Shown: piece after piece, positions 8,192-56,425 of the stretch
Numbering within the stretch: position 1 is the stretch's first letter
How the letters are laid out: every line of letters begins with the position of its first letter
Source: Vicinamibacterales bacterium
GTDB taxonomy: Bacteria > Acidobacteriota > Vicinamibacteria > Vicinamibacterales > JAMQPK01
Reading direction: 5' to 3'
Assembly (NCBI GenBank): GCA_963761975.1
Contig: CAVXIR010000007.1
Location: 558,965 to 622,964, forward strand
DNA length: 64,000 nucleotides
Program-made: the position numbers and the translations under genes
Notes under the pieces: generated by a model
Told to the model about the DNA's origin: nothing
The model's database searches: none
Seen by the model: the letters and a program-made list of their open reading frames with translations, nothing else

Positions 8192-8338
8192 TCGCACTAT
8201 TCGCAGATTGTCAGATTCGTAGATTGTCAGATTCGCGAACTGTCAGATTGGAAGAATGACGATTGGAGGATTGCTCGATTGATTGGCCGTCGACATGTAT
8301 TTTCCAATCGCACAATCTGCGAATCTGCGAATCTTCCA
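8192..8338. repeat. imperfect palindrome built from CAGATTG / CAATCTG units
   Basis: Left half ATTCGCAGATTGTCAGATTCG..., right half ..CAATCTGCGAATCTGCGAATC. It fills the intergenic gap. Confidence 0.8.
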
Positions 8339-9547
8339 ATGCTCCGTCTCGTGCTGGCGCTCTTCCTCTGCACGCCGGTCTTTGCTGCTGACTGGCCACA
8401 ATTTCTCGGGCCGGCACGAAACGGCATCTACACCGGCGCGCCGCTGACCGAAAAATGGGCGTCGACGGGCCCGCGCGTCATCTGGCGCAAACAGGTCGGG
8501 CAGGGGCTGAGCGGACCGGTCGTCGCACAGAATCGACTCATTCTGTTTCACCGCGTCGCCGATCGCGAAGTCGTCGAATCGTTCGATGCGCTCACCGGTG
8601 CGCCGCAATGGCGCCACGCCTATCCCACAACGTATCGCGATGATTTCGGGTTCGATGAAGGGCCGCGCGCGGTTGCTGTTGTTAGCGATGGCCGCGTCTA
8701 CACCTATGGAGCGGAAGGCAAGCTGCATGCAGTCGAGCTGGCGACGGGGAAGCCCCTGTGGGACGTCGACGCCATGCGACAGTTCGAAGTGGCGAAGGGA
8801 TTCTTCGGCGCCGCCGGGTCGCCGCTGATCGACGAGGGAAAGGTCATCGCAAACATCGGCGGCAGGAAAGGCGGCATCGTCGCCTTCGATGCGCAAAGCG
8901 GGAAGGCGGTGTGGACGGCGACGGCCGATGCCGCCAGCTATTCCTCCGGAGTGGGCGCCACGATTCTCGGCCGCCGCTACGCGGTGTTTCTGACGCGTGA
9001 AGGGTTGGTCGGACTCGATCCCGCAACAGGGCAGGTTCGCTTTCAGCGCCCGTGGCGTGCACGCCAGGCGGCGTCTGTGAATGCGGCGACGCCGCTCGTG
9101 GTCGGCAACGCGATTTTCGTGTCGGCCGAGTACGGGCCTGGTGCCGGTCTTCTGCAGTTCGATGGCACGAAGCTCGTCGATGTGTGGCTGTCGAACGACG
9201 TACTGTCGAATCACTACGCGACGAGCGTTCATCACGAAGGGCATCTTTACGGCTTTCACGGCCGTCAGGAATTCGGCCCCGTGTTTCGCGCGGTTCATCT
9301 GCAGAGCGGAAAGGTGCTGTGGAGCACCGAGCGATTTGGCGCGGGAAGCGTGACGCTCGCCGGCAATCGTCTGCTGATCGTCCGCGAGACAGGTGAGTTG
9401 ATTCTTGCCGCAGCGTCGCCGAAGTCCTTCCAGACAATCGCGAAGGCGCAGATCGTTCCACCAACCGTTCGCGCCTATCCGGCGCTTGCCGACGGTGTGC
9501 TGTACGTCCGCAACGACGATACGCTGATTGCACTGGATCTTCGATGA
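8339..9547 (+). CDS. PQQ-like beta-propeller repeat protein (BamB-like fold), secreted
   Basis: Signal peptide MLRLVLALFLCTPVFAADWPQFLGP, then repeated G.V(Y/F)...dG.l.A.d..tG...W blades. Confidence 0.85.
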   Translation: MLRLVLALFLCTPVFAADWPQFLGPARNGIYTGAPLTEKWASTGPRVIWRKQVGQGLSGPVVAQNRLILFHRVADREVVESFDALTGAPQWRHAYPTTYRDDFGFDEGPRAVAVVSDGRVYTYGAEGKLHAVELATGKPLWDVDAMRQFEVAKGFFGAAGSPLIDEGKVIANIGGRKGGIVAFDAQSGKAVWTATADAASYSSGVGATILGRRYAVFLTREGLVGLDPATGQVRFQRPWRARQAASVNAATPLVVGNAIFVSAEYGPGAGLLQFDGTKLVDVWLSNDVLSNHYATSVHHEGHLYGFHGRQEFGPVFRAVHLQSGKVLWSTERFGAGSVTLAGNRLLIVRETGELILAAASPKSFQTIAKAQIVPPTVRAYPALADGVLYVRNDDTLIALDLR

Positions 9548-10179
9548 ATGCCCGTCACCCTTTGTGGTTAACACTGCGCGCGGCTTTTCTTGTGCTCGCG
9601 TCTGTGCTGCTTTCCGCACAGAGTCCTCAGGCACTGTTGACTCGCGCAGTCGGCCAGTTCGAGGCAGGGCAGGTTGCGGAGTCGGCGAGAACCTTCGATG
9701 AGCTCGCGAAACTCATCCCTGATGAAGCGTCTCAGCTGTGGCAGCGCGGCATTGCACTGTATTACGCGGGTCGTTTCACGGACTGCCGTCGCCAGTTCGA
9801 ATCGCACCGAACCGTCAATCCCGACGATGTCGAGAACGCGGCGTGGCATTTCCTCTGCGTTGCGCGGGAACAGACACCTGAAAAGGCGCGTGCGGCGCTG
9901 CTGCCGGTTGGGCCCGACTCACGTCTGCCGATGCGCGAGGTCTACCAGATGTTCCGCGGCACGCTCACGCCGCAGGACGTGTTGAAGGCCGCAGGGAATC
10001 AGCCCGGTGGATTGTTCTACGCCCACCTGTACATCGCGCTGTATTCGGAGGCGCTCGGCAGTGCAGATCTCGCGCGGCAGCACATCAAAGAGGCGGCCTC
10101 GGATCAATATGCCCGCGTTGGAGGCTACATGCACATGGTGGCCACGGTGCATCTCAAGGTTCGGGGTTCTGGGTTCTGA
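9544..10179 (+). CDS. TPR-like secreted hypothetical protein
   Basis: ATGA start/stop overlap with the upstream propeller gene. Signal peptide present. The last codons lie inside the GGTTCTG array. Confidence 0.6.
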   Translation: MNARHPLWLTLRAAFLVLASVLLSAQSPQALLTRAVGQFEAGQVAESARTFDELAKLIPDEASQLWQRGIALYYAGRFTDCRRQFESHRTVNPDDVENAAWHFLCVAREQTPEKARAALLPVGPDSRLPMREVYQMFRGTLTPQDVLKAAGNQPGGLFYAHLYIALYSEALGSADLARQHIKEAASDQYARVGGYMHMVATVHLKVRGSGF

Positions 10180-10270
10180 GGTTCTGGGTTCGCGAGCCAA
10201 AACGCGGAACCCAGAACCCGGAACCCAGAACGAGAACCCAGCACGTAGAACCCAGAACCTGGAACCGCAG
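10158..10270. repeat. palindromic array: GGTTCTG units on the left, CAGAACC units on the right, centred on GGTTCGCG-AGCCAAAA-CGCGGAACC
   Basis: Read directly. It lies between convergent genes. Confidence 0.9.
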
Positions 10271-10274
10271 AGAA

Positions 10275-11571
10275 CTAATTAGACGTCGTCTTCGCGGTCT
10301 TATCCCATGTCCGCAGAATCTGACCCGCCACTTTCTCCTTAGGAGCGCCTGGAACCGGCTCGAACTTCTGCACTCGCCCCGCCATGCAATCGGCAAGATA
10401 GAGGTTGCCCTTCTGGTCTGTCGACATGCCGTGCGAACAGTTCAGCCGTCCCGCCGGTCCACCCGGCGCGCCCCAGCTATACAGATGGTTGCCCTTCTGA
10501 TCGAACTTGAGGATCCGGGCCGTCGGCGAATCGCCGACCCAGATGAATCCGTCCTGATCGATGAAATGGTTGACCATCAGCGTGCCCTGGCTGCTCGGCC
10601 AGTGCGGCGAGCGCAGCGGCCACATGTCGAGGAATTTGCCGTTTTCGTCGAAGACCTGCATGCGCTGATGGCCGCGGTCGACAACGAAGAGCTTCCGGTC
10701 TGCGCTGATGGCGATGCTGTGGACGGTGTTGAACTCGTTCGGCCCGGGGTTCTGCGGGTCTTTCGGCGCCTGCCCCCAGTCCATGATGAACTTGCCGTTC
10801 GGGTCGAACTTCGCGACGCGCTTTCCGCCGTACCCGTCCGAGATAAAGTAGGTGCCGTCGGGCAGCCACGCGATGTCGGTCGGGCGATCGAACGTGTTCG
10901 GGCCCCGTCCGCGCACGCCGAGCTCGCCGTGCGTGAACACGAGCTTGCCATCGTAGGTGAACTTGTAGATCACGTGAAGCTGGTCGTCGATGATCCAGAC
11001 GTGCTTTTGTGGATCGGTACGGACTGATCTTGATCTGATGCGGTCCACGGCCGCACGGCAGCTTCGAAAACATCGGGTCGAGATGCGGCCATTCGTCGAC
11101 CAGGTTGCCTTCGCCGTCGACGATGATGATCGAGTGCTCGAAGCGCCGTTCCCATCCCCGTTTTTCGGTGGGCTCGCACGTGGCGCTAATCCCGTCGCCG
11201 TTGCCCGTCGCAACGCCGCGCGTCGGATTCAGCGCGGCATACGGCGTCCATGGTGCGGCGCCTTCGGGTAGCGGTAACTCGCCGCGCATCGCTATCCAGA
11301 TGCGATCGGGGGATTCGGCATAGACCCCGCCGAACGAGCCCCACGTCCAGCCCTGGTGCGGATGCCGCGTGTCGGGCAACGGCTTAGGCCAGTTCTCGAC
11401 GACGCGGTAGGGGCCGGTTGGCCAATCCTGATGACTCCACCGCTCGGTCTTCGCGGCGGCAGCTGTTTCGGGTTCGGGGGCCGGGGGTTGTGCGGTACTG
11501 CAGCCCGGAAGTCCGGACATCAGCAGCACCGACGCGGCGAACGCCGCGATCACACCATGAGTCCTGCGCAT
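10275..11571 (-). CDS. NHL-repeat six-bladed beta-propeller (peptidyl-alpha-hydroxyglycine lyase-like) lipoprotein, with a 1-nt frameshift near 11016
   Basis: ORF 10477..11571 gives the N-terminus with a lipobox (LMSGLPGC). ORF 10275..11213 gives the NHL blades. The frames join at ..HQIKISPY|DPQKHVWIIDD if one C of TACCGAT is removed. Confidence 0.8.
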
Positions 11572-11638: not shown

Positions 11639-11792
11639 GGTTCTGGGTGCTGGGTTCTGCGTGCTGGGTTCCGGTTCTAGGTTCTCGGTCGTAGGTGCTC
11701 GGTTCTAGGTTCTCTCGGTCGGCCGAGAGAATCAGGAACGGAACCAAATCTTGGAACAAAAACCCAGAACGCACAACCCAGCACCCAGAACC
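11639..11792. repeat. palindromic array of GGTTCTG/GGTGCTG units (left) and CCCAGAAC units (right), centred on CTCTCGGTCGGCCGAGAG
   Basis: Read directly. Confidence 0.9.
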
Positions 11793-20024: not shown

Positions 20025-20098
20025 TCGTAGCTCGTAGCTGGTAGCTCGTACCGACACGTAGCTTGTAGCTCTAGCGTGGGATGCTGCCAGCTGCCAGC
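20025..20098. repeat. palindromic array: GTAGCT units (left) and CAGCTA/CAGCTG units (right)
   Basis: TCGTAGCTCGTAGCTGGTAGCTCGTA...GCTGCCAGCTGCCAGCTACCAGCTA. Lies between divergent genes. Confidence 0.85.
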
Positions 20099-20171
20099 TA
20101 CCAGCTAGGTCCATGCTAACATCGCGCCTTCGCCCCCACAGAAACCGGGTTCTTTTTTGAGGATGGCAGCC

Positions 20172-22572: not shown

Positions 22573-22767
22573 CCACGAAGCCACGAAACCACGAAGACAC
22601 GAAGACACGACGACACGACGACACAACAATGGACCCGCGACCCACGAACCTACGAACCTTACGAACTTCACGAACTTCACGAACCCACGAACCTGCGTCG
22701 CGCCATCACCCAGTCATTCGGGGCGCGGCAGCCGACGAACCCACGAAGCCTTACGAACCTACGAACC
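22573..22767. repeat. composite direct array: CCACGAAG/ACACGA(A/C)G units, then CACGAACC units, interrupted by a short GC hairpin
   Basis: Read directly. It fills the gap up to the ferredoxin stop. Confidence 0.9.
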
Positions 22768-23120
22768 TATGAGATCCAGACCGCCTCTGGCGTTATCGTC
22801 TCTTCCGGTGTGCGTCCAGGATCTGGCCGGCCCGACCCGTCGAGCCGGCTAATCGCGCGGACGGTCATATCGTGATCGCACAGGATTTGACAGGACAGCC
22901 TTACGCCCGAGAGGCCCCGTTGTGCGAGCCGTTCCTTCTCGGCCGTCGTCATCCTCGACGGTTCGCCTTCGATGAACTCGACGCGGCAGGTTGTGCACCG
23001 CGCGTTTCCACCGCAGGCGTGCAGAATGTCGACTTTCGCATCCTGCTCGATCGCGAGCACGAGGCGTTTGTTCTCGGCGACATCGAACGTTCCATATCCT
23101 TCAACAGTCAGATTTGGCAT
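22767..23120 (-). CDS. plant-type [2Fe-2S] ferredoxin (117 aa)
   Basis: Cys pattern CGGNARCTTC...C (C-x4-C-x2-C ... C) in a beta-grasp-sized protein. Confidence 0.85.
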   Translation of the reverse strand: MPNLTVEGYGTFDVAENKRLVLAIEQDAKVDILHACGGNARCTTCRVEFIEGEPSRMTTAEKERLAQRGLSGVRLSCQILCDHDMTVRAISRLDGSGRPDPGRTPEETITPEAVWIS

Positions 23121-23137
23121 ACATCATTCTATACACT

Positions 23138-23318
23138 GCGGTTCTGGGTTCTGCGGTTCTGGGTTCTAGGTGCTGGTTCGTTCAGGTTCTAGGTTCAGAT
23201 TCTACGTTCGGGTTCTACGTTCAGTACTAGGTTCCGTTTTTGCGCAGAATGTCTGAACCTAGCACCCCGAACTGAACACCGAGAGCCCAGCACCCAGCAC
23301 CCAGAACCGAGAACCGCG
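23138..23318. repeat. 181-bp palindromic array: GGTTCTG/GGTTCTA units (left) and CCCAGCAC/CAGAACC units (right), with termini CGCGGTTCT / AGAACCGCG
   Basis: Read directly. Lies between divergent genes (ferredoxin and the antitoxin). Confidence 0.9.
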
Positions 23319-23335
23319 TAATGTACAATGCACAT

Positions 23336-23584
23336 ATGAAGCGGTACTCCGTCGCGGAGGCGCGTGCGAGATTTTCCGACCTGCTCGACGCGGCCGAGAA
23401 AGGGCAGCCCTCAGTGATCGAGCGACGCGGCGTGCGGTTTGTCATTCGCCCGGAGGATGGCCCACGCCGCGGCAGCCGGCGCAGCATGATCGAGTACATC
23501 GATCCTGATGTGGCCCGCGGTCAGTGGACCTGGAAATTGGGCGCCGATGGGTTGCGGTTCGAAGGTCGGCGGCCTCGCAAGTGA
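23336..23584 (+). CDS. type II antitoxin (Phd/YefM- or VapB-like)
   Basis: MKRYSVAEARARFSDLLDAAEKGQPSVIERRG is typical of antitoxin N-termini. GTGA overlap with the PIN toxin gene. Confidence 0.7.
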   Translation: MKRYSVAEARARFSDLLDAAEKGQPSVIERRGVRFVIRPEDGPRRGSRRSMIEYIDPDVARGQWTWKLGADGLRFEGRRPRK

Positions 23585-35871: not shown

Positions 35872-35965
35872 GCATTGCCGTATTTTCGATTGGCAATTGC
35901 CAAATTCATTGGCGATTGGAAATTCCCAATCAATTCACAATCGTCAATTGAGAATGCGGCAATGC
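35872..35965. repeat. GCATTGCC...GGCAATGC palindromic element, copy a (94 bp)
   Basis: Termini GCATTGCCGTATT / AATGCGGCAATGC. The interior is made of CAATTG/GATTGG/CAATC motifs. Lies between convergent gene ends. Confidence 0.85.
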
Positions 35966-35966
35966 G

Positions 35967-36235
35967 TCATGTCCCCGCTTGATTCTCATTCCTCATGACC
36001 GCCCCCAGCCGCTGAACGGCGCGGTTCACGGCCATTCTCGCGCCGTCAGGCGTATTGAATCCAAACTGCTCGGCAATTTCAGCGACGCTCCATTGTGCTT
36101 CGACGCGTGCGATCACGAGCTCCCGCTCACGGGGCTTCAGCCGGCCCATGGCCGCGCGGTAGTGATCGTAGGTTTCATGCTCGAGCGCCTGATCAAGTGG
36201 CGACGGATCCTCAGACGGGAATTCCGGCGGCAGCT
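35967..36235 (-). pseudogene. ECF sigma factor relic; only the linker plus region 4 remain
   Basis: ..YRAAMGRLKPRERELVIARVEAQWSVAEIAEQFGFNTPDGARMAVNRAVQRL is a sigma70 region 4 HTH. No region 2 is present. Upstream it runs straight into the GTTCGTG array. Confidence 0.75.
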
Positions 36236-36236
36236 C

Positions 36237-36355
36237 TTCGTGAAGTTCGTGGAGGTTCGTGGGTTCGTGGGGTTCGTGGGTTCGTGAGTTCGTGGGTTCG
36301 TAGGTTCGTGGAGTTCGTGGTTCGTGAGTTCGTCGGTTTGTAGTTCGTGGTTCGA
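36237..36355. repeat. tandem array of GTTCGTG units (reverse orientation of CACGAAC), about 14 units
   Basis: Read directly. It forms the left arm of an inverted pair with 36936-37075. Confidence 0.9.
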
Positions 36356-36464
36356 ATTCCGCGTACTTCGCGACGAGGTGGTACGGCAAAAACTGCCTCG
36401 GCGGGCGACTTTGGTTGATTTCGCTGGCGTTGTCGCTGGCCCATACATTGCTCCTTCCCTTCGT

Positions 36465-36893
36465 ATGCGTCGCTATCAAGATTTCAAGGCGTGGCAGCTC
36501 GCACGCGACCTGCACCGGAAAGTCTTTGCGATGACGTCAACGGGCCCAGCGTCTCGCGACTTCAAGTTTCGCGACAATATGCGTGACGCGGCTGATTCGG
36601 CGCAGCGGAATTTTCCCGAAGGATTCGGCCGGTTTGCGCCGGCCGACTTTGCACACTTCTTGGATCACTCCCGCGCGTCTCTGCTGGAGGTGAAGAACGC
36701 AATCGGCGAGGGATTCGAGCGTAAGTATTTTCGCAACGACGAGTGCGTCGAGGCAGACTCACTAGCGGCTCGCGCGTTGAAAGCGCTGTCTGGGCTGCAG
36801 CAGTATCTGCGATCTCCGGAGGCGAAACGAAACGCCGACCGCGCCCGCGCGCAACACATTGCGCGACGAACCCAACGAAACTCACACACCTGA
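36465..36893 (+). CDS. four-helix-bundle protein ('23S rRNA intervening-sequence protein' family, 142 aa)
   Basis: MRRYQDFKAWQLARDLHRKVFAMT...RDNMRDAADSAQRNFPEGFGR....F..FL..S..SL.EV...I is the pattern I recognise for this family. Confidence 0.85.
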   Translation: MRRYQDFKAWQLARDLHRKVFAMTSTGPASRDFKFRDNMRDAADSAQRNFPEGFGRFAPADFAHFLDHSRASLLEVKNAIGEGFERKYFRNDECVEADSLAARALKALSGLQQYLRSPEAKRNADRARAQHIARRTQRNSHT

Positions 36894-36935
36894 TAGCGAC
36901 CGAACGAACCCGCTGATCCCCCAAGGGCCGACTTG

Positions 36936-37075
36936 CCACGAACCTACGAACCCCACGAACCCCACGAACCTACGAACTGTACGAACCCCACGAACCCCAC
37001 GAAGCTACGAACTGCACGAACTCCACGAACCCCCGAACTCCACGAACTCTCACGAACCCACGAAAGCCGGTTTCA
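36936..37075. repeat. tandem array of CACGAACC units, about 16 units; right arm of the inverted pair
   Basis: Read directly. Degenerate units begin already at about 36862, inside the last codons of the four-helix-bundle gene. Confidence 0.9.
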
Positions 37076-37133
37076 ACTCGTCGGGCGACGGATTCAACAG
37101 ATCTTCCGGGACCGGCCACGACGGTTCAGCCAT

Positions 37134-37229
37134 TCAGTACGCCGCAATCGCGCCGCCGTAGCCGGATCCGACCACGATGACGTCATAACGGGAGCGCAAT
37201 TCGCCGATGGGCGTTGATAGGCTCGGCAT
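37134..37229 (-). pseudogene. N-terminal stump (31 codons) of an FAD-dependent oxidoreductase (Rossmann GxGxxG)
   Basis: MPSLSTPIGELRSRYDVIVVGSGYGGAIAAY then a stop. The rest of the gene is missing and the array follows about 60 nt downstream. Confidence 0.55.
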
Positions 37230-37348
37230 CTCAGGTCACGGTTGGGCGAAAACGGCCGATAAGCTATCGTGTGTATGTGTAGAAGGCAGATTCTTCCACT
37301 AACCGAAGACCCCTGCCAGCGGAAAGTAATCCACTCACGTCAACGACC

Positions 37349-42048: not shown

Positions 42049-43167
42049 ATGCCCCGAACCCTCTTTGTTTCTACGGTCCTTCTGGCGATCGGGCTTCCCG
42101 TCAGCTGGCTGGCGGCGCAGGAGTCGCGTGTGCCTTTTGTGTACGTATCGGGTTATCGGCCAGAGATCGCCATCTTTCGACTCGATACGGCGGGCGGCCG
42201 GCTGATCCCGGCCGGCAAGGCCACCAACGTTGGGCAGGAGCCGTCGTTTCTGGCCTTCGACCCGACGGCGAAATACCTGTTTGCCGTCAACGAGACCGAC
42301 CCGGGCCGTGTCCGTTCCTTCACAATCAATCAGGCGAGCGGCGGGTTGACGCCCATCAATGATGTGCCGTCGATGGGCAGCATCACCGCTCATCTCTCGA
42401 CTGACAAGACCGGCCGGTGGCTGCTGGTCGCCAATTACGGCGACACCAAACAGGGCACCATTGCGTCGATTCCGATCGGCCCTGACGGGCGGCTGAGCGA
42501 GGCGGTCGACACCCGGGAGTTTGGCCTGGGATCGATGGCGCATTACATCAGTTCCGATCCGGGCAACCGATTCGTGTTCGTCCCCCTGAAAGGGGGGCCG
42601 TCGGTCGCCCAGCTGGTGTTCGACCCGGCCACGGGCCGAATGAAACCGAACGTGCCGCCACAGGTGACGGCGGCACCGGGTGCGGGGCCTCGTCACCTCG
42701 ACTTTCATCCAAACGGTCGCTTTGCGTATGTCATCAACGAGCTCGATTTGACGATGGCGGCATTTGCCTACGACGCGAAGACGGGACTCTTGCGCGAGCT
42801 CCAGGTGCTTCCGACACTTCCGGCAGCCGCCGACAAGGTGGGCGCATCGGCTGCGGATGTCCACGTGCATCGCTCGGGACGATTTCTTTACGGCTCGAAC
42901 CGCGGCCACAACAGCATCGTCATCTTTCGCCTGGCCGACGACGGCCGCATGACCCTTGTCGGCCACGAGTCGCGCACCATACTCCGGCCGCGTAATTTCA
43001 CGATCGATCCCACCGGCACGTTGATGCTCGTCGCCAACCAGGATGGTGCGAGCGTCTCGATCTTCCGAATCGATCAGAACAAGGGAACATTGGAGCCGGT
43101 CGGGCAGCCGACGCCGGTCGGACAGAACCCTTCGTTCGTCGGGGTTGTGATGTTGGCGGGAAAATAG
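42049..43167 (+). CDS. lactonase-family 7-bladed beta-propeller (6-phosphogluconolactonase-like), secreted
   Basis: ..PSFLAFDP..KYLFAVNE.., GPRHLDFHPNGRFAYVINEL, HRSGRFLYGSNRGHNSIVIF and RNFTIDPTG..L.VANQD.. are hallmark repeats. Confidence 0.85.
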   Translation: MPRTLFVSTVLLAIGLPVSWLAAQESRVPFVYVSGYRPEIAIFRLDTAGGRLIPAGKATNVGQEPSFLAFDPTAKYLFAVNETDPGRVRSFTINQASGGLTPINDVPSMGSITAHLSTDKTGRWLLVANYGDTKQGTIASIPIGPDGRLSEAVDTREFGLGSMAHYISSDPGNRFVFVPLKGGPSVAQLVFDPATGRMKPNVPPQVTAAPGAGPRHLDFHPNGRFAYVINELDLTMAAFAYDAKTGLLRELQVLPTLPAAADKVGASAADVHVHRSGRFLYGSNRGHNSIVIFRLADDGRMTLVGHESRTILRPRNFTIDPTGTLMLVANQDGASVSIFRIDQNKGTLEPVGQPTPVGQNPSFVGVVMLAGK

Positions 43168-43169
43168 AG

Positions 43170-43221
43170 CTCGTGGGTTCGTTGGGTTCGTGAGGTTCGT
43201 AAGGTTCGTAAGGTTCGTCGG
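43170..43221. repeat. tandem array of GGTTCGT units, about 6 units
   Basis: Read directly, immediately after the lactonase stop. Confidence 0.85.
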
Positions 43222-43259: not shown

Positions 43260-44210
43260 ATGCGGGTTCTGCTTTCGTTGTTGCTGCTGTTTCCGATTGT
43301 GATCTCCGCGCAAGAGCAACCGCGCGTCCTTTACTATCCGAAACCCCTCAACCGCGAATACAAGCCGCCGATGAAGCCGGTGACCCGGCTGGCAGACCTG
43401 AAGGCGAAGAACCAGGGCAAAACCACCTGGCGCGAGCCCGTTATCAATGACGGCAACTCGGTGTCGTTCATGGTGCAGGAACCGCCCGGCACCAAGTACG
43501 AACGCCGCATGTATCCGGATTCTGCGGGGTGGTTCATTGTCCTCGACGGACAAGTTCGGTTTGAAGTGGAGAAAGCCGACGGCACCTTCGAGATCATCAA
43601 TGCGACGAAGGGGTCGTATGTGTTCGTGCCCGAGCGCCTTCTGCATTCGATCGAGGTCATGGGCAACACGCCGGCGATTCGATACGAAGTCGCGTCGGGA
43701 CCGTCATCAACACCGGTCTACGAGAAGCGGCCGGCGCAGGCACCCAAGGGTGTCGAGTACATTCCGGTGACGTTGGGCACCGGGTTGAACCCGCTGGATG
43801 TGTACAACCAGGGAAACGGCGGCCAACCATGGCCGTACCACGTGAACGTGTACGAACTCGAGAAGCGGAACGCCACGAAGAAAGGGTTCACGCAGGAGGC
43901 GATGCGCGCCAACCGCGCGCGCGGCAATTTCATCTGCGGCTATCGTCCCACGGCATTTCCGACGGAGAAGGGCGATCGAGGTCACCTGCACACTGATACC
44001 GCCGAATCATGGATCGTCATGCTGGGCGAGTTGCGGTGGGTCTTCGAAGGCGACGAGAAGACCGCGATCATCGCGCAGCAGGGCGACATCATCTATGCCG
44101 TACCGGGCACGTTCCACTCGCCGCAGTTCTGGGGCAAGGAAGGTCTGAACTGCCGGCTGACCCAAAGCACCATGCCATCGCTGAACCATTTGTACGATGC
44201 GAAGAAGTAG
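43260..44210 (+). CDS. secreted bicupin-like hypothetical protein (316 aa)
   Basis: Signal peptide MRVLLSLLLLFPIVISAQ and two cupin-like G..(Y/I)V.VP....H segments. Confidence 0.55.
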   Translation: MRVLLSLLLLFPIVISAQEQPRVLYYPKPLNREYKPPMKPVTRLADLKAKNQGKTTWREPVINDGNSVSFMVQEPPGTKYERRMYPDSAGWFIVLDGQVRFEVEKADGTFEIINATKGSYVFVPERLLHSIEVMGNTPAIRYEVASGPSSTPVYEKRPAQAPKGVEYIPVTLGTGLNPLDVYNQGNGGQPWPYHVNVYELEKRNATKKGFTQEAMRANRARGNFICGYRPTAFPTEKGDRGHLHTDTAESWIVMLGELRWVFEGDEKTAIIAQQGDIIYAVPGTFHSPQFWGKEGLNCRLTQSTMPSLNHLYDAKK

Positions 44211-50536: not shown

Positions 50537-50550
50537 CGCTACCGAGCGCT

Positions 50551-50676
50551 GGGTGCGCTAGGTGCGATGGGTGCGTCAGGTGCGATGGGTGCGTCAGGTG
50601 CGTCGGGTGCGTTAGGTGCGTTAGGTGCGTCAGGTGCGTCGGGTGCGTTAGGTGCGTTAGGTGCGTCAGGTGCGTA
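50551..50676. repeat. direct tandem array, 14 units of the 9-nt GGTGCGTNA
   Basis: Read directly. 126 nt long with strict 9-nt phase. Confidence 0.92.
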
Positions 50677-56323: not shown

Positions 56324-56425
56324 GCATTGCCGCATTTTCAATTGACAACTGCCATATTGATTGACGATTCACACTTGGTCAGTCGCCAATCAATTAGAAA
56401 TTGTCAATTGAAAATGTGGCAATGC
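56324..56425. repeat. GCATTGCC...GGCAATGC palindromic element, copy c (102 bp)
   Basis: Termini GCATTGCCGCATTTTCAATTGACAA / TTGTCAATTGAAAATGTGGCAATGC. Lies between convergent gene ends. Confidence 0.85.

Follow-up and report, generated by a model that had tools for sequence, protein, structure and literature searches.

Long intergenic palindromes built from short tandem units were analysed in a 64,000-nucleotide stretch of DNA from a Vicinamibacterales bacterium of the phylum Acidobacteriota (GenBank assembly GCA_963761975.1, contig CAVXIR010000007.1, positions 558,965 to 622,964), hereafter referred to as the window. Three of them, at 10158-10271, 11639-11792 and 23138-23318, each run from GGTTCTG-like heptamers in the left arm through a short unique centre to CAGAACC-like heptamers in the right arm. 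On balance, these three focal loci are probably array palindromes devoid of an open reading frame (ORF) that were made in situ and that would act as RNase III substrates when transcribed. The arrays are hypervariable, confined to non-coding DNA and so oriented that their G-rich strand leads away from the ORF beside them. Addition of an inverted arm to a solo array can produce a palindrome, after which the arms drift independently, and centres can be deleted or inverted. Furthermore, the array palindrome with its G-rich arm first (G-first) is the regular housing of genes for S23p/IVP four-helix-bundle proteins, and one complete cassette of this kind lies at 36237-37064.

The shared GGTTCTG...CAGAACC design of the three loci had been proposed in an earlier note made from the sequence alone, and is supported by direct reading, by Tandem Repeats Finder (TRF) and by a search for inverted arms (Table 1). 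TRF reports periods of 7, 14 and 15 in the arms at all three loci. The arms comprise 5-13 units, reach up to ~95 nt, and are 72-94% complementary across 15-52 nt when inverted. GGTTCTG itself has 19 occurrences in the window; dinucleotide shuffles gave 6.7 +/- 2.5, and none of 100 reached 19. The long hairpins suggested in the earlier note are borne out by folding: the predicted RNA structures reach -95.1 kcal/mol at 23138 (z -8.3 versus shuffles), -65.9 kcal/mol at 10158 (z -7.6) and -95.8 kcal/mol at 11639 (z -10.7), and 23138 also folds as DNA (-46.9 kcal/mol, z -6.9). In all three palindromes the G-rich arm is 5' on both strands, and the alternative arrangement was not seen among them. The loci differ in length, unit order and centre, and are not near-identical dispersed copies; a conserved palindromic monomer of the repetitive extragenic palindromic (REP) type is absent from their arms, which consist of tandem heptamers. 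As a side observation, an A4-5 / T4-5 tract stands beside GGAACC in the centre or inner arm of each palindrome (10197-10211, 11753-11771 and 23234-23247; CCAAAACGCGGAACC, GGAACAAAAACCCAGAACG and GGTTCCGTTTTTGC, respectively), and GGCAAAAACTGCC occurs in the left inner flank of the IVP cassette; this may be due to chance.

The three palindromes occupy different gene contexts, and the gene map agrees with the convergent, tandem and divergent settings described previously. The 10158 locus lies between convergent TPR (+) and NHL-repeat (-) genes, 11639 between tandem PQQ/BamB-like (-) and NHL (-) genes, and 23138 between the divergent genes for Fer2, a 2Fe-2S ferredoxin (-), and for the Phd/YefM antitoxin (+) of a Phd/YefM-PIN toxin-antitoxin pair. 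Promoter motifs were called by eye. A TA(G/C)AAT box 5-7 nt before the ATG is kept in ~80 Fer2 orthologues (L123-L202; comparison loci bear L numbers throughout). At 23118-23133 and 23324-23338, respectively, neither the Fer2 gene nor the antitoxin gene has a Shine-Dalgarno sequence, whereas other genes, such as that at 43260, do have GGAGG. Both genes look leaderless or near-leaderless, and leaderless mRNAs seem common in this lineage. The 23138 palindrome fills the space between two such divergent -10 boxes and should therefore, as judged from these motifs, belong to neither mRNA. At 11639, the palindrome adjoins a conserved TTGACC-N17-TAACAC promoter-like site of the NHL gene, on the side away from the PQQ stop codon. 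No T-run was read after the stems of the three palindromes, and a terminator scan found no site for the whole stems at 10158 or 11639, with 23138 outside the scan; one terminator-like site near 11639, at 11786-11767(-), lies inside one arm. The earlier view that a simple terminator role would not cover all three loci is supported: the 23138 copy is missing from L132 and L133 and, flanked by the two divergent -10 boxes, would belong to neither mRNA.

Comparison with relatives reveals rapid turnover at these sites. Orthologous loci were available at 100, 97, 90, 88, 86, 85 and 83% PQQ protein identity (L119-L122 and L203-L205), together with the 80 Fer2 loci. The 11639 palindrome is present in the window and in L119. 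At the same site, L120 (97% amino acid identity) retains only a 17-nt remnant, AACCCCGAACCAAGAAC, L121 has nothing, and L122 carries a palindrome of another unit (GGTCGCAAG / CTTGCGAC). Solo arrays occupy it in L204, where (GGGGATT)n stands directly behind the PQQ stop (L204:6363-6410), and in L205, with (GTTCCAA)n. The flanks of the window do not join cleanly with those of L120 and L121, and neither target-site duplications nor clean insertion edges were found at the focal sites (window versus relatives) or in L001/L090.

The 10158 site documents the order of events. An older (GATCAGGAG)n / (CTCCTGATC)n hairpin is common to L121, L122 and L204. L120 combines the older (GATCAGGAG)n hairpin with a solo GGTTCTG array of 4 units where the TPR gene ends; at the position of that hairpin, the window carries an inverted copy of the array instead. 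The solo array therefore preceded the palindrome, and the new arm was added on the only free side. At 23138, L120, L121 and the window have the centre GGTTCAGACATTCTGCGCAAAAACGGAACC in common, but not the sequence or unit number of the arms; the palindrome is absent in L133, with 19 nt between the -10-like boxes, and in L132, where the boxes abut (0 nt). The solo (GGTTCGTG)n array behind the Fer2 stop counts ~17 units in the window, 5 in L120 and ~30 in L121. Both the Fer2/antitoxin palindrome and this 3' array thus keep their position among the three loci and vary in length and sequence. The convergent Fer2 3' region of more distant relatives holds a (GGTTAGT)n palindrome in L182, a (GTCGTTCG)n palindrome in L193, a half-palindrome in L192, a plain GC hairpin in L188 and nothing in L195, five states in all among close relatives. 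Variation in unit number between orthologous regions, for which the earlier note had proposed to look, was accordingly found, along with palindromes of other units at the same site. Separately, the (GGGGCTA / GGGGACT)n / (AGTCCCC)n palindromes behind Fer2 in L143, L145 and L174 consist of exactly the cyanobacterial units.

Orientation of the arrays follows rules that hold well beyond the focal loci. Arm order was recorded with TRF in the window and 122 loci; of these, L001-L118 were chosen by their GGTTCTG arrays, which biases unit identity but neither arm order nor IVP enrichment. The 5' arm contains more G than C in 45 of 48 array palindromes (42 of 45 after removal of the L119 duplicates), across many phyla and many units, including GGTTCTG, AAGGATG, ACGGAGAA, GAGGCGGT and TGGAGTAC. 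In a Vicinamibacterales-only set, the G-rich arm comes first in 16 of 18. Exceptions are L144 and L190 and, by eye, also L201 and L142. The random orientation that the earlier note had named as a test of its proposal was not observed in these loci. Solo arrays, which make up about three quarters of all arrays, are oriented as well: in 24 of 27 cases (heuristic gene calls), the G-rich strand has its 5' end closer than its 3' end to the neighbouring ORF, and in 19 of 27 this end follows a same-sense stop codon, often at a distance of 0-20 nt. The G-first arrangement of palindromes follows from this rule combined with the order of arm addition at 10158. A replication-strand cause was considered and ruled out. 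The GC skew is flat and weakly positive across the window, and arrays point both ways, so array orientation tracks the local gene rather than the replichore. The outward course of the G-rich strand might, as a hypothesis, reflect avoidance of C-rich, Rho-loading RNA in sense 3' untranslated regions (UTRs). Plain perfect GC-rich hairpins outside arrays were also examined in the window and L120-L202, and these too are more often G-first (47 versus 25; for stems of at least 9 bp, 12 versus 3); the bias may be a general property of hairpins in this lineage.

The capacity of the arms to pair is not specific to each locus. In semi-global alignments, arms scored 24-34 with their own partners and 20-33 across loci, and among 13 palindromes from several phyla the duplex energy per nucleotide was -1.40 for native and -1.26 for cross pairs, with the focal locus ranking 7th of 13. 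At 11639, the arms are in register across no more than their outer 35 nt (30 of 35). Compensatory change between the arms was looked for and not found: left arms pair about as well with right arms of other loci as with their own, and there is therefore no sign of compensatory stem maintenance. Hairpin pairing characterises the repeat family rather than the single locus. The earlier note had left open selection for structure or a common generating mechanism. The mechanism is favoured by the rapid turnover, the different units per site and the passage from solo array to palindrome; the selection half of the proposal fares less well, as no locus-specific selection for pairing was detected and arms match those of other loci and other phyla about equally well.

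The favoured account would combine these elements as follows. Each focal locus consists of two opposed hypervariable tandem arrays of the GGTTCTG family, G-rich arm 5' on both strands, whose combined length takes up the non-coding DNA as far as the neighbouring ORFs or core promoters, and belongs to a lineage-wide population of intergenic arrays with 7-9-nt units in Vicinamibacterales. A solo array would grow from an ORF boundary, presumably by replication slippage; a second arm would be added on the free side as an inverted copy, possibly by template switching or fold-back copying, and both arms would drift through substitution and through the gain and loss of units. An older, unrelated hairpin was replaced by the new arm at 10158. 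Hairpin potential would then exist because the same unit is present in both orientations, and not because of arm-by-arm compensatory selection. Where the stems are transcribed, as would be the case for 10158 in convergent read-through and for 11639 behind the PQQ stop, they would form 35-70 bp of double-stranded RNA, a potential RNase III target or 3'-end structure. Cutting at these two loci is expected by analogy, because ribosomal RNA (rRNA) intervening sequences (IVSs) of the same architecture are cut. The 23138 copy, in turn, would be untranscribed, dispensable and at most a tolerated, cruciform-prone spacer between divergent promoters.

Array palindromes of the same build also enclose genes. 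The IVP ORF of the window has XCC0516 (PDB 2gsc) as its nearest solved relative, and the two inverted arrays of roughly 120 nt around it point the 'wrong' way relative to the inner ORF, which lies at the core of a G-first palindrome. Homologues with identities of 94, 85 and 71% occur in three gene contexts, two of them unlike that of the window, and each lies between (GGTTCGTN)n and (NACGAACC)n arrays 545-590 nt apart. Among called IVP homologues (60 of 120 read), many have array-encoded tails (…NPRT, EPHEPHEP, TNPTNPTN) and a few have array-encoded starts; the contigs bearing homologues of the window IVP are mostly very short. The right-hand neighbour in L206 differs from that in the window, which points to rearrangement at the right arm of the cassette. 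Beside this, the outer flanks of the cassette (35967-36260 and 37120-37230) resemble gene fragments, namely a sigma-70 ORF with region 4 only and a GMC-oxidoreductase-like N-terminus (DVIVVGSGYGGAIAA) that hits a stop codon after 31 codons.

The association extends across phyla. With a profile from the window family, IVP ORFs were found to abut arrays in 11 of the 118 loci fetched by the GGTTCTG pattern alone, or 12 with the degraded remnant in L115. These loci belong to Vicinamibacterales, other Acidobacteriota, Bacteroidales, Photobacterium, a candidate phyla radiation (CPR) bacterium, Dehalococcoidia, Peptococcaceae and Verrucomicrobia; GGTTCTG-armed cassettes are represented in Vicinamibacterales by L001, L090, L117 and L072, and also occur in other phyla. 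At loci selected without regard to IVP, an IVP ORF or its remnant lies within 8 of 19 inverted array pairs with a spacing of 250-900 nt. A separate sample was drawn from plasmids, in which IVP genes were picked by tblastn from PLSDB independently of arrays. Short-unit arrays flank 13 of the 14 genes inspected, and in 10 of these 13 they form G-first inverted pairs whose units differ with the lineage: Nostoc sp. ATCC 53789 (GGGAAAA / CCCTTTT), Nostoc flagelliforme (AGCAGGG / CCCTGCT), Anabaena (GGTGACA / CTGTCAC), Stanieria (AAGGCAG / CCTTCTG), Geminocystis (AAAAGGG / CTTTTCC), Gemmatirosa (GAGGGCAG / CTCCTGCC), Riemerella (GGTTTAA / TAAACCT), Azospirillum (GAGGACG / GTCTTCT), Leptolyngbya (GGAGAGG-type / CCTCTCC-type) and Picosynechococcus (AAGGAGAT-type / ATCTCCTTA-type). 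The remaining genes have direct arrays on both sides (two), a one-sided array beside an ISL3 element (one) or none (one). The flanks of the Azospirillum gene (L234) read as 23S rRNA; if they are, this would be a true rRNA IVS. Array-flanked IVP genes also lie inside CRISPR-cas operons (cas6-cas4 or cmr2-cmr3) in Anabaena sp. 90 (L229), Pseudanabaena galeata (L235) and Picosynechococcus PCC 7003 (L242), and the upstream array in Anabaena sp. 90 spans ~40 units (~300 nt). Likewise, GGGAATC repeat #15 in supplementary file 2 of a study on Xanthomonas and Nostoc, at 622956-622983 of Xanthomonas campestris ATCC 33913, lies over the start codon of XCC0516 and 6 nt from XCC0517, the overlap with XCC0516 having passed without comment by the authors (Rehm 2015; PMC4692102).

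Two pairs of loci illustrate how such centres change. L001:945-1526 and L090:4681-5036 represent the same locus of two Vicinamibacterales metagenome-assembled genomes, with GGTTCTG / CAGAACC arms kept, and L090 lacks ~250 nt in the middle of the IVP ORF, an example of how a cassette can decay into a palindrome with a shorter centre. In the RidA/AlkD intergenic region of two 93% relatives (L207:2442-3264 and L236:4151-5000), a ~540-nt centre with the IVP ORF is inverted between unchanged arms, an event that resembles flip-flop recombination between the two opposed arrays; the L236 copy of the ORF is broken into two frames. An empty site for the L207 cassette was not found, the single fetched orthologue (L236) carrying the cassette too. 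Phage carriage of IVP was also considered and rejected, given that none of the 19 viral contigs matching the GGTTCTG DNA pattern has an IVP ORF.

Several observations weigh against formation of the focal loci in situ. Addition of the second arm in place is shown for 10158 only, the histories of 11639 and 23138 being, as far as their sequences suggest, compatible with it. Cassettes of one IVP subfamily have the same arm unit in unrelated genomic contexts, which suggests that arms and centre are movable or inherited as a unit. Decay of the kind seen between L001 and L090 means that the focal loci could be decayed or non-autonomous elements. In addition, GGTTCTG arrays occur in many phyla, far above chance, and purely local slippage does not explain this.

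The main rival explanation builds on these points. [quoted passage not shown] The complete cassette in the window, the 71-94% homologues that lie in different gene contexts yet always between (GGTTCGTN)n and (NACGAACC)n, the array-encoded tails, the GGTTCTG-armed cassettes in L001, L090, L117, L072 and other phyla, and the 8 of 19 array pairs with an IVP ORF or remnant all speak for it, as do the ORF deletions between intact arms, of 250 nt in L090 and 176 bp in a Coxiella strain. However, no IVP remnant was detected in the 12-22-nt centres of the three focal palindromes, no IVP ORF was found at or near the three sites in ~90 related loci, and most arrays have none. Target-site duplications are lacking and edges are imprecise; at 10158 the solo array precedes the palindrome; many unrelated units coexist per genome, where arrays far outnumber IVP genes; and IVP has no associated transposase or known mobility function. 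A broader proposal, which we hold only tentatively and think doubtful, would unite heptamer-array palindromes and S23p/IVP genes in one cross-phylum system, with ORF-less palindromes and solo arrays (the focal loci, Xanthomonas GGGAATC and the cyanobacterial short tandemly repeated repetitive (STRR) sequences) as footprints or non-autonomous relatives. Under this proposal, the G-first palindrome may be the obligatory housing of IVP genes in intergenic DNA, 23S rRNA and cas operons alike, and IVP may recognise or propagate its cognate array.

Selection for the structure itself, either as RNA bidirectional terminators or insulators or as DNA cruciforms that absorb supercoils between promoters, appears quite unlikely. 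The stems are very stable, some hairpin is kept by every lineage at the NHL/TPR convergent site, and 11639 is placed between the PQQ stop codon and the TTGACC-N17-TAACAC promoter-like site. Yet the 11639 site has no hairpin in L120 and L121, the convergent Fer2 3' site is empty in L195 and half-palindromic in L192 where relatives have palindromes, and 23138 lies outside both mRNAs and is absent in L132 and L133. The arms lack compensatory covariation, no U-tract follows the stems, and solo arrays have their own separate terminator-like hairpins.

A role of the arrays as multimeric binding sites was also weighed. The earlier note had seen structure or a common mechanism, rather than a specific protein-binding word, behind the arrays; a cognate relation of protein and repeat is nevertheless conceivable, given that subfamily-specific units in this same architecture surround IVP genes across phyla. 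Avd, a relative of IVP, binds nucleic acid and reverse transcriptase in diversity-generating retroelements. The candidate ligand here would be a pentameric S23p/IVP, with one heptamer per subunit and the palindrome as two opposed platforms, a possibility that must be called distinctly improbable. It would account for arm units that are specific to IVP subfamilies (GGTTCG(T/C)N with the window type, GGTTCTG with the L001 type) and for the arrays adjoining 13 of 14 plasmid IVP genes and XCC0516, whose structure (PDB 2gsc) is a homopentameric toroid according to PMC4990558, which cites Lin et al. 2006. It would not account for units that differ widely among the arrays of one genome, for the far greater number of arrays than of IVP genes, or for arms too degenerate for a strict word. 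Still less probable, and rejected for these arrays, is a function as G-quadruplex (G4) elements, as proposed for the Xanthomonas and Nostoc heptamers. Although (GGTTCTG)n equals (GGGTTCT)n, i.e. G3N4, so that perfect runs would meet the G4 motif, and the G-rich strand is oriented as in Rehm 2015 (PMC4692102), the G-tracts are interrupted, many array units (CAGATTG, GTAGCT, TCAGGAG) have no G-tracts, and neither of the only two canonical (G3+N1-7)x4 motifs in the window falls in the three palindromes. Finally, an origin as assembly or sequencing artefacts of long-read metagenomes, to which the NHL frameshift in the window but not in L119 might point as typical of long-read errors, is effectively refuted: the arrays are not assembly noise because they are identical in the separately recorded ENA contig L119, because related ones occur in many short-read assemblies, isolate genomes and plasmids, and because such arrays have been published for Xanthomonas and Nostoc (PMC4692102) and for Coxiella (PMC4990558).

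Beyond the focal loci, a census of arrays with units of 6-10 nt, resting on the heuristic gene map, places the palindromes in a larger population. They cover 2.7% of the window as a whole and ~14.5% of its intergenic bases; intergenic DNA, which amounts to ~17% of the window, holds 93% of the array bases. They occur in 16 of 41 intergenic regions, with tandem (8 of 18), convergent (4 of 11) and divergent (4 of 12) regions alike, as the variety of contexts in the earlier note had implied. The palindromes of other units named there were also recovered, i.e. the GTAGCT palindrome at 20028-20107, the CAGATTG palindrome, and CAATTG-like palindromes at 35872-35965 and 56330-56419. The arrays at 1860-1976, 6253-6306 and 43171-43218 lie between a stop codon and a separate GC-rich hairpin and are therefore 3'-UTR spacers, not terminators. 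Many of the matches to the GGTTCTG pattern come from Vicinamibacterales, the order to which orthologues of the flanking PQQ protein are also assigned by their sources. Rfam at gathering thresholds returned no family in the window, and no rRNA was found there; a 99-nt tRNA-Lys(UUU) called by ARAGORN at 42097-42195, inside a lactonase ORF (42049-43167), has no Rfam support and is probably false. Among the neighbouring genes, the NHL-repeat gene of the window is split over overlapping frames (10275-11213 and 10477-11571) and its counterpart in L119, a contig of identical context, is an intact 431-amino-acid protein; the split is a frameshift, most likely from an assembly error or recent pseudogenisation.

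Table 1. Positions in the window of the focal palindromes, the IVP cassette and further arrays.
Feature	Position	Strand	Evidence and remarks
Focal palindrome, left (G/T-rich) arm, ~13 GGTTCTG-like units	23138..23234	no strand	Sequence, TRF, inverted-arm search, fold
Focal palindrome, unique centre CGTTTTTGCGCAGAATG	23235..23251		Conserved in L120, largely in L121, while arms vary
Focal palindrome, right (C/A-rich) arm, CAGAACC / CAGCACC units	23252..23318		Sequence, TRF, inverted-arm search, fold
-10-like box TATAGAAT	23126..23133	-	5 nt before Fer2 ATG; read by eye
-10-like box TACAAT	23324..23329	+	6 nt before antitoxin ATG (23336); kept in L120, L121, L132, L133; by eye
Palindrome 2, left arm	10158..10194		Supplies last codons and TGA stop of TPR gene (9544-10179); solo array in L120
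Palindrome 2, centre GAGCCAAAACGC	10195..10206		Sequence, fold
Palindrome 2, right arm	10207..10271		Ends 4 nt before NHL stop codon
Palindrome 3, left arm, GGTTCTG / GGTGCTG units	11639..11709		Sequence, TRF, inverted-arm search, fold
Palindrome 3, central perfect 9-bp hairpin TTCTCTCGG-TCGG-CCGAGAGAA	11710..11731		Sequence, fold
Palindrome 3, right arm	11732..11792		Degenerate 11732-11760, clear 11761-11792; ends 5 nt from PQQ stop codon
IVP cassette, left arm (GGTTCGTG)n	36237..36354		TRF
23S_rRNA_IVP / TIGR02436 four-helix-bundle ORF (S23p family), 144 aa	36459..36893	+	Between inverted arrays
IVP cassette, right arm (CCACGAACC)n	36936..37064		Complementary to 36237-36350, alignment score 124; TRF
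(TCGTAGC)n / (GCTACCA)n palindrome	20025..20107		TRF
(CAGATTG)n / (CAATCTG)n palindrome	8199..8340		Right arm adjoins ATG of PQQ gene; TRF
Asymmetric G-first palindrome, convergent genes	403..626		(GTTCGTG)n 403-440, (CGAACCCCA)n 450-626; TRF
Solo array (TTGGGTTCG)13, sense strand	1860..1976	-	Begins at stop of outer membrane protein (OMP) gene 1977-5882; separate terminator-like hairpin 1861-1831 after
Solo sense-strand array (GGTTCGTN)n	6253..6306	-	4-8 nt past stop codon; then separate GC hairpin
Three solo sense-strand arrays (GGTTCGTG / TCTTCGTG)	22574..22769	-	From Fer2 stop codon; ~17 units
Solo array (GGTTCGTAA)n	43171..43218	+	4 nt past stop; then 7-bp GC hairpin and next gene's GGAGG ribosome-binding site
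Solo array (GGTGCGTTA)n	50546..50675	+	Divergent intergenic region

Heptamers are the most abundant long simple repeat class in most bacterial genomes surveyed, as summarised in PMC4679880, and reports of rRNA intervening sequences and of S23p/IVP proteins go back to the 1990s (Afseth et al. 1995, cited in PMC4990558). The present data extend the heptamer class to Acidobacteriota, where it occupies about one seventh of the intergenic DNA in this window, and add orientation rules that hold across phyla as well as direct views, by comparison, of how arrays are born, gain an arm, are replaced, decay and have their centres inverted. They also tie the repeat architecture to IVP genes in an unbiased sample, through 13 of 14 plasmid genes, XCC0516 and the Coxiella IVS. 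With caution, the finding that G-first heptamer-array palindromes regularly house IVP genes across phyla can be regarded as new: within an incomplete coverage of the literature, no general description of IVP genes flanked by heptamer arrays was found beyond the Coxiella IVS, nor any literature on Vicinamibacterales repeats, and a cross-kingdom survey of short tandem repeats held nothing relevant. If the link is causal, the puzzles of heptamer repeats and of IVP function become one testable problem, and the one-system proposal, if true, would explain the excess of heptamer repeats in bacterial genomes. On a practical level, the arrays appear to break short-read assemblies, because contigs with IVP homologues are mostly very short, and they inflate ORF calls through array-encoded tails. 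Array-flanked IVP genes inside cas operons may also matter for the annotation of cas loci.

Among known systems, intrinsic bidirectional terminators resemble the palindromes in placing a stable hairpin directly behind stop codons, as at 10158 and 11639. In contrast to terminators, the stems are 5-10 times longer than needed and lack a U-tract, separate terminator-like hairpins accompany solo arrays, and the 23138 copy lies upstream of both neighbouring genes. Foldback transposons and MITEs share long inverted repeats of short tandem subrepeats, a variable and invertible centre (L207 versus L236) and forms with and without an ORF; herein, however, target-site duplications, a transposase and near-identical dispersed copies are all lacking, and the edges coincide with ORF boundaries rather than a target site. 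In REP sequences, a single conserved palindrome of 20-40 bp, headed by GTAG or CGTC, is present in copies that a RAYT transposase has spread. Together with bacterial interspersed mosaic elements (BIMEs) and REPINs, they are likewise abundant imperfect intergenic palindromes, often at gene 3' ends and with proposed roles in mRNA stability or termination, but the arms described here are tandem arrays variable in unit, number and order, with no conserved master sequence. The heptamers of Geobacter and Beggiatoa were set aside as a match, being related phenomena that are not palindromic.

The closest parallel as a repeat class is offered by the intergenic heptamers GGGAATC of Xanthomonas and GGGGA(C/T)T of Nostoc, which occur singly or as inverted pairs and to which the cyanobacterial STRR and the heptamer class of long simple sequence repeats (LSSR) are related. 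In these genomes, 70-75 inverted pairs each were described as 'always' convergent, i.e. G-first, and it is on its 5' side that the G-rich strand lies nearest to the ORF, in many cases at the stop codon (Rehm 2015; PMC4692102). Both systems thus have a 7-nt tandem unit, a strong intergenic bias, G-first inverted pairs, the same rule on ORF distance, and positions kept between relatives with varying length and sequence; even identical units are found in some Vicinamibacterales (GGGGATT in L204; GGGGCTA / GGGGACT in L143 and L145). They differ in that the GGTTCTG arms lack four intact G3 tracts and hence a canonical G4, in the much greater length of the focal arms (up to ~95 nt) with no preference for four units, and in the phylum, Acidobacteriota, in which arrays are equally common in divergent regions. 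As a repeat class, therefore, the palindromes are the Xanthomonas/Nostoc heptamer phenomenon in a new phylum, with longer arms that are not G4-capable.

In architecture, the parallel is with IVSs of 23S and 16S rRNA that carry an S23p ORF (23S_rRNA_IVP, PF05635). The IVS of Coxiella burnetii has GACAGAT heptamers, strain-dependent in number, before its S23p ORF and a 28-bp terminal stem that RNase III cuts in vitro, with ends mapped within the stem by RACE (rapid cDNA-end amplification), and one strain has a 176-bp deletion in the ORF (PMC4990558). According to the same source, RNase III also cleaves the IVSs of Salmonella, Leptospira and Alphaproteobacteria, and the rRNA IVS of Leptospira likewise contains an S23p ORF. 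Terminal inverted repeats that form a long stem with a unique loop, tandem heptamers of variable number in or beside the stem, and forms with and without the ORF are common to both, and this anatomy is exactly matched by the window cassette at 36237-37064. The focal palindromes differ in lying between protein-coding genes rather than in an rRNA helix and in having centres of 12-22 nt without a PF05635 ORF, and the 23138 copy is probably not transcribed. Altogether, as an architecture, the palindrome equals the stem of S23p-bearing IVSs, located outside rRNA.

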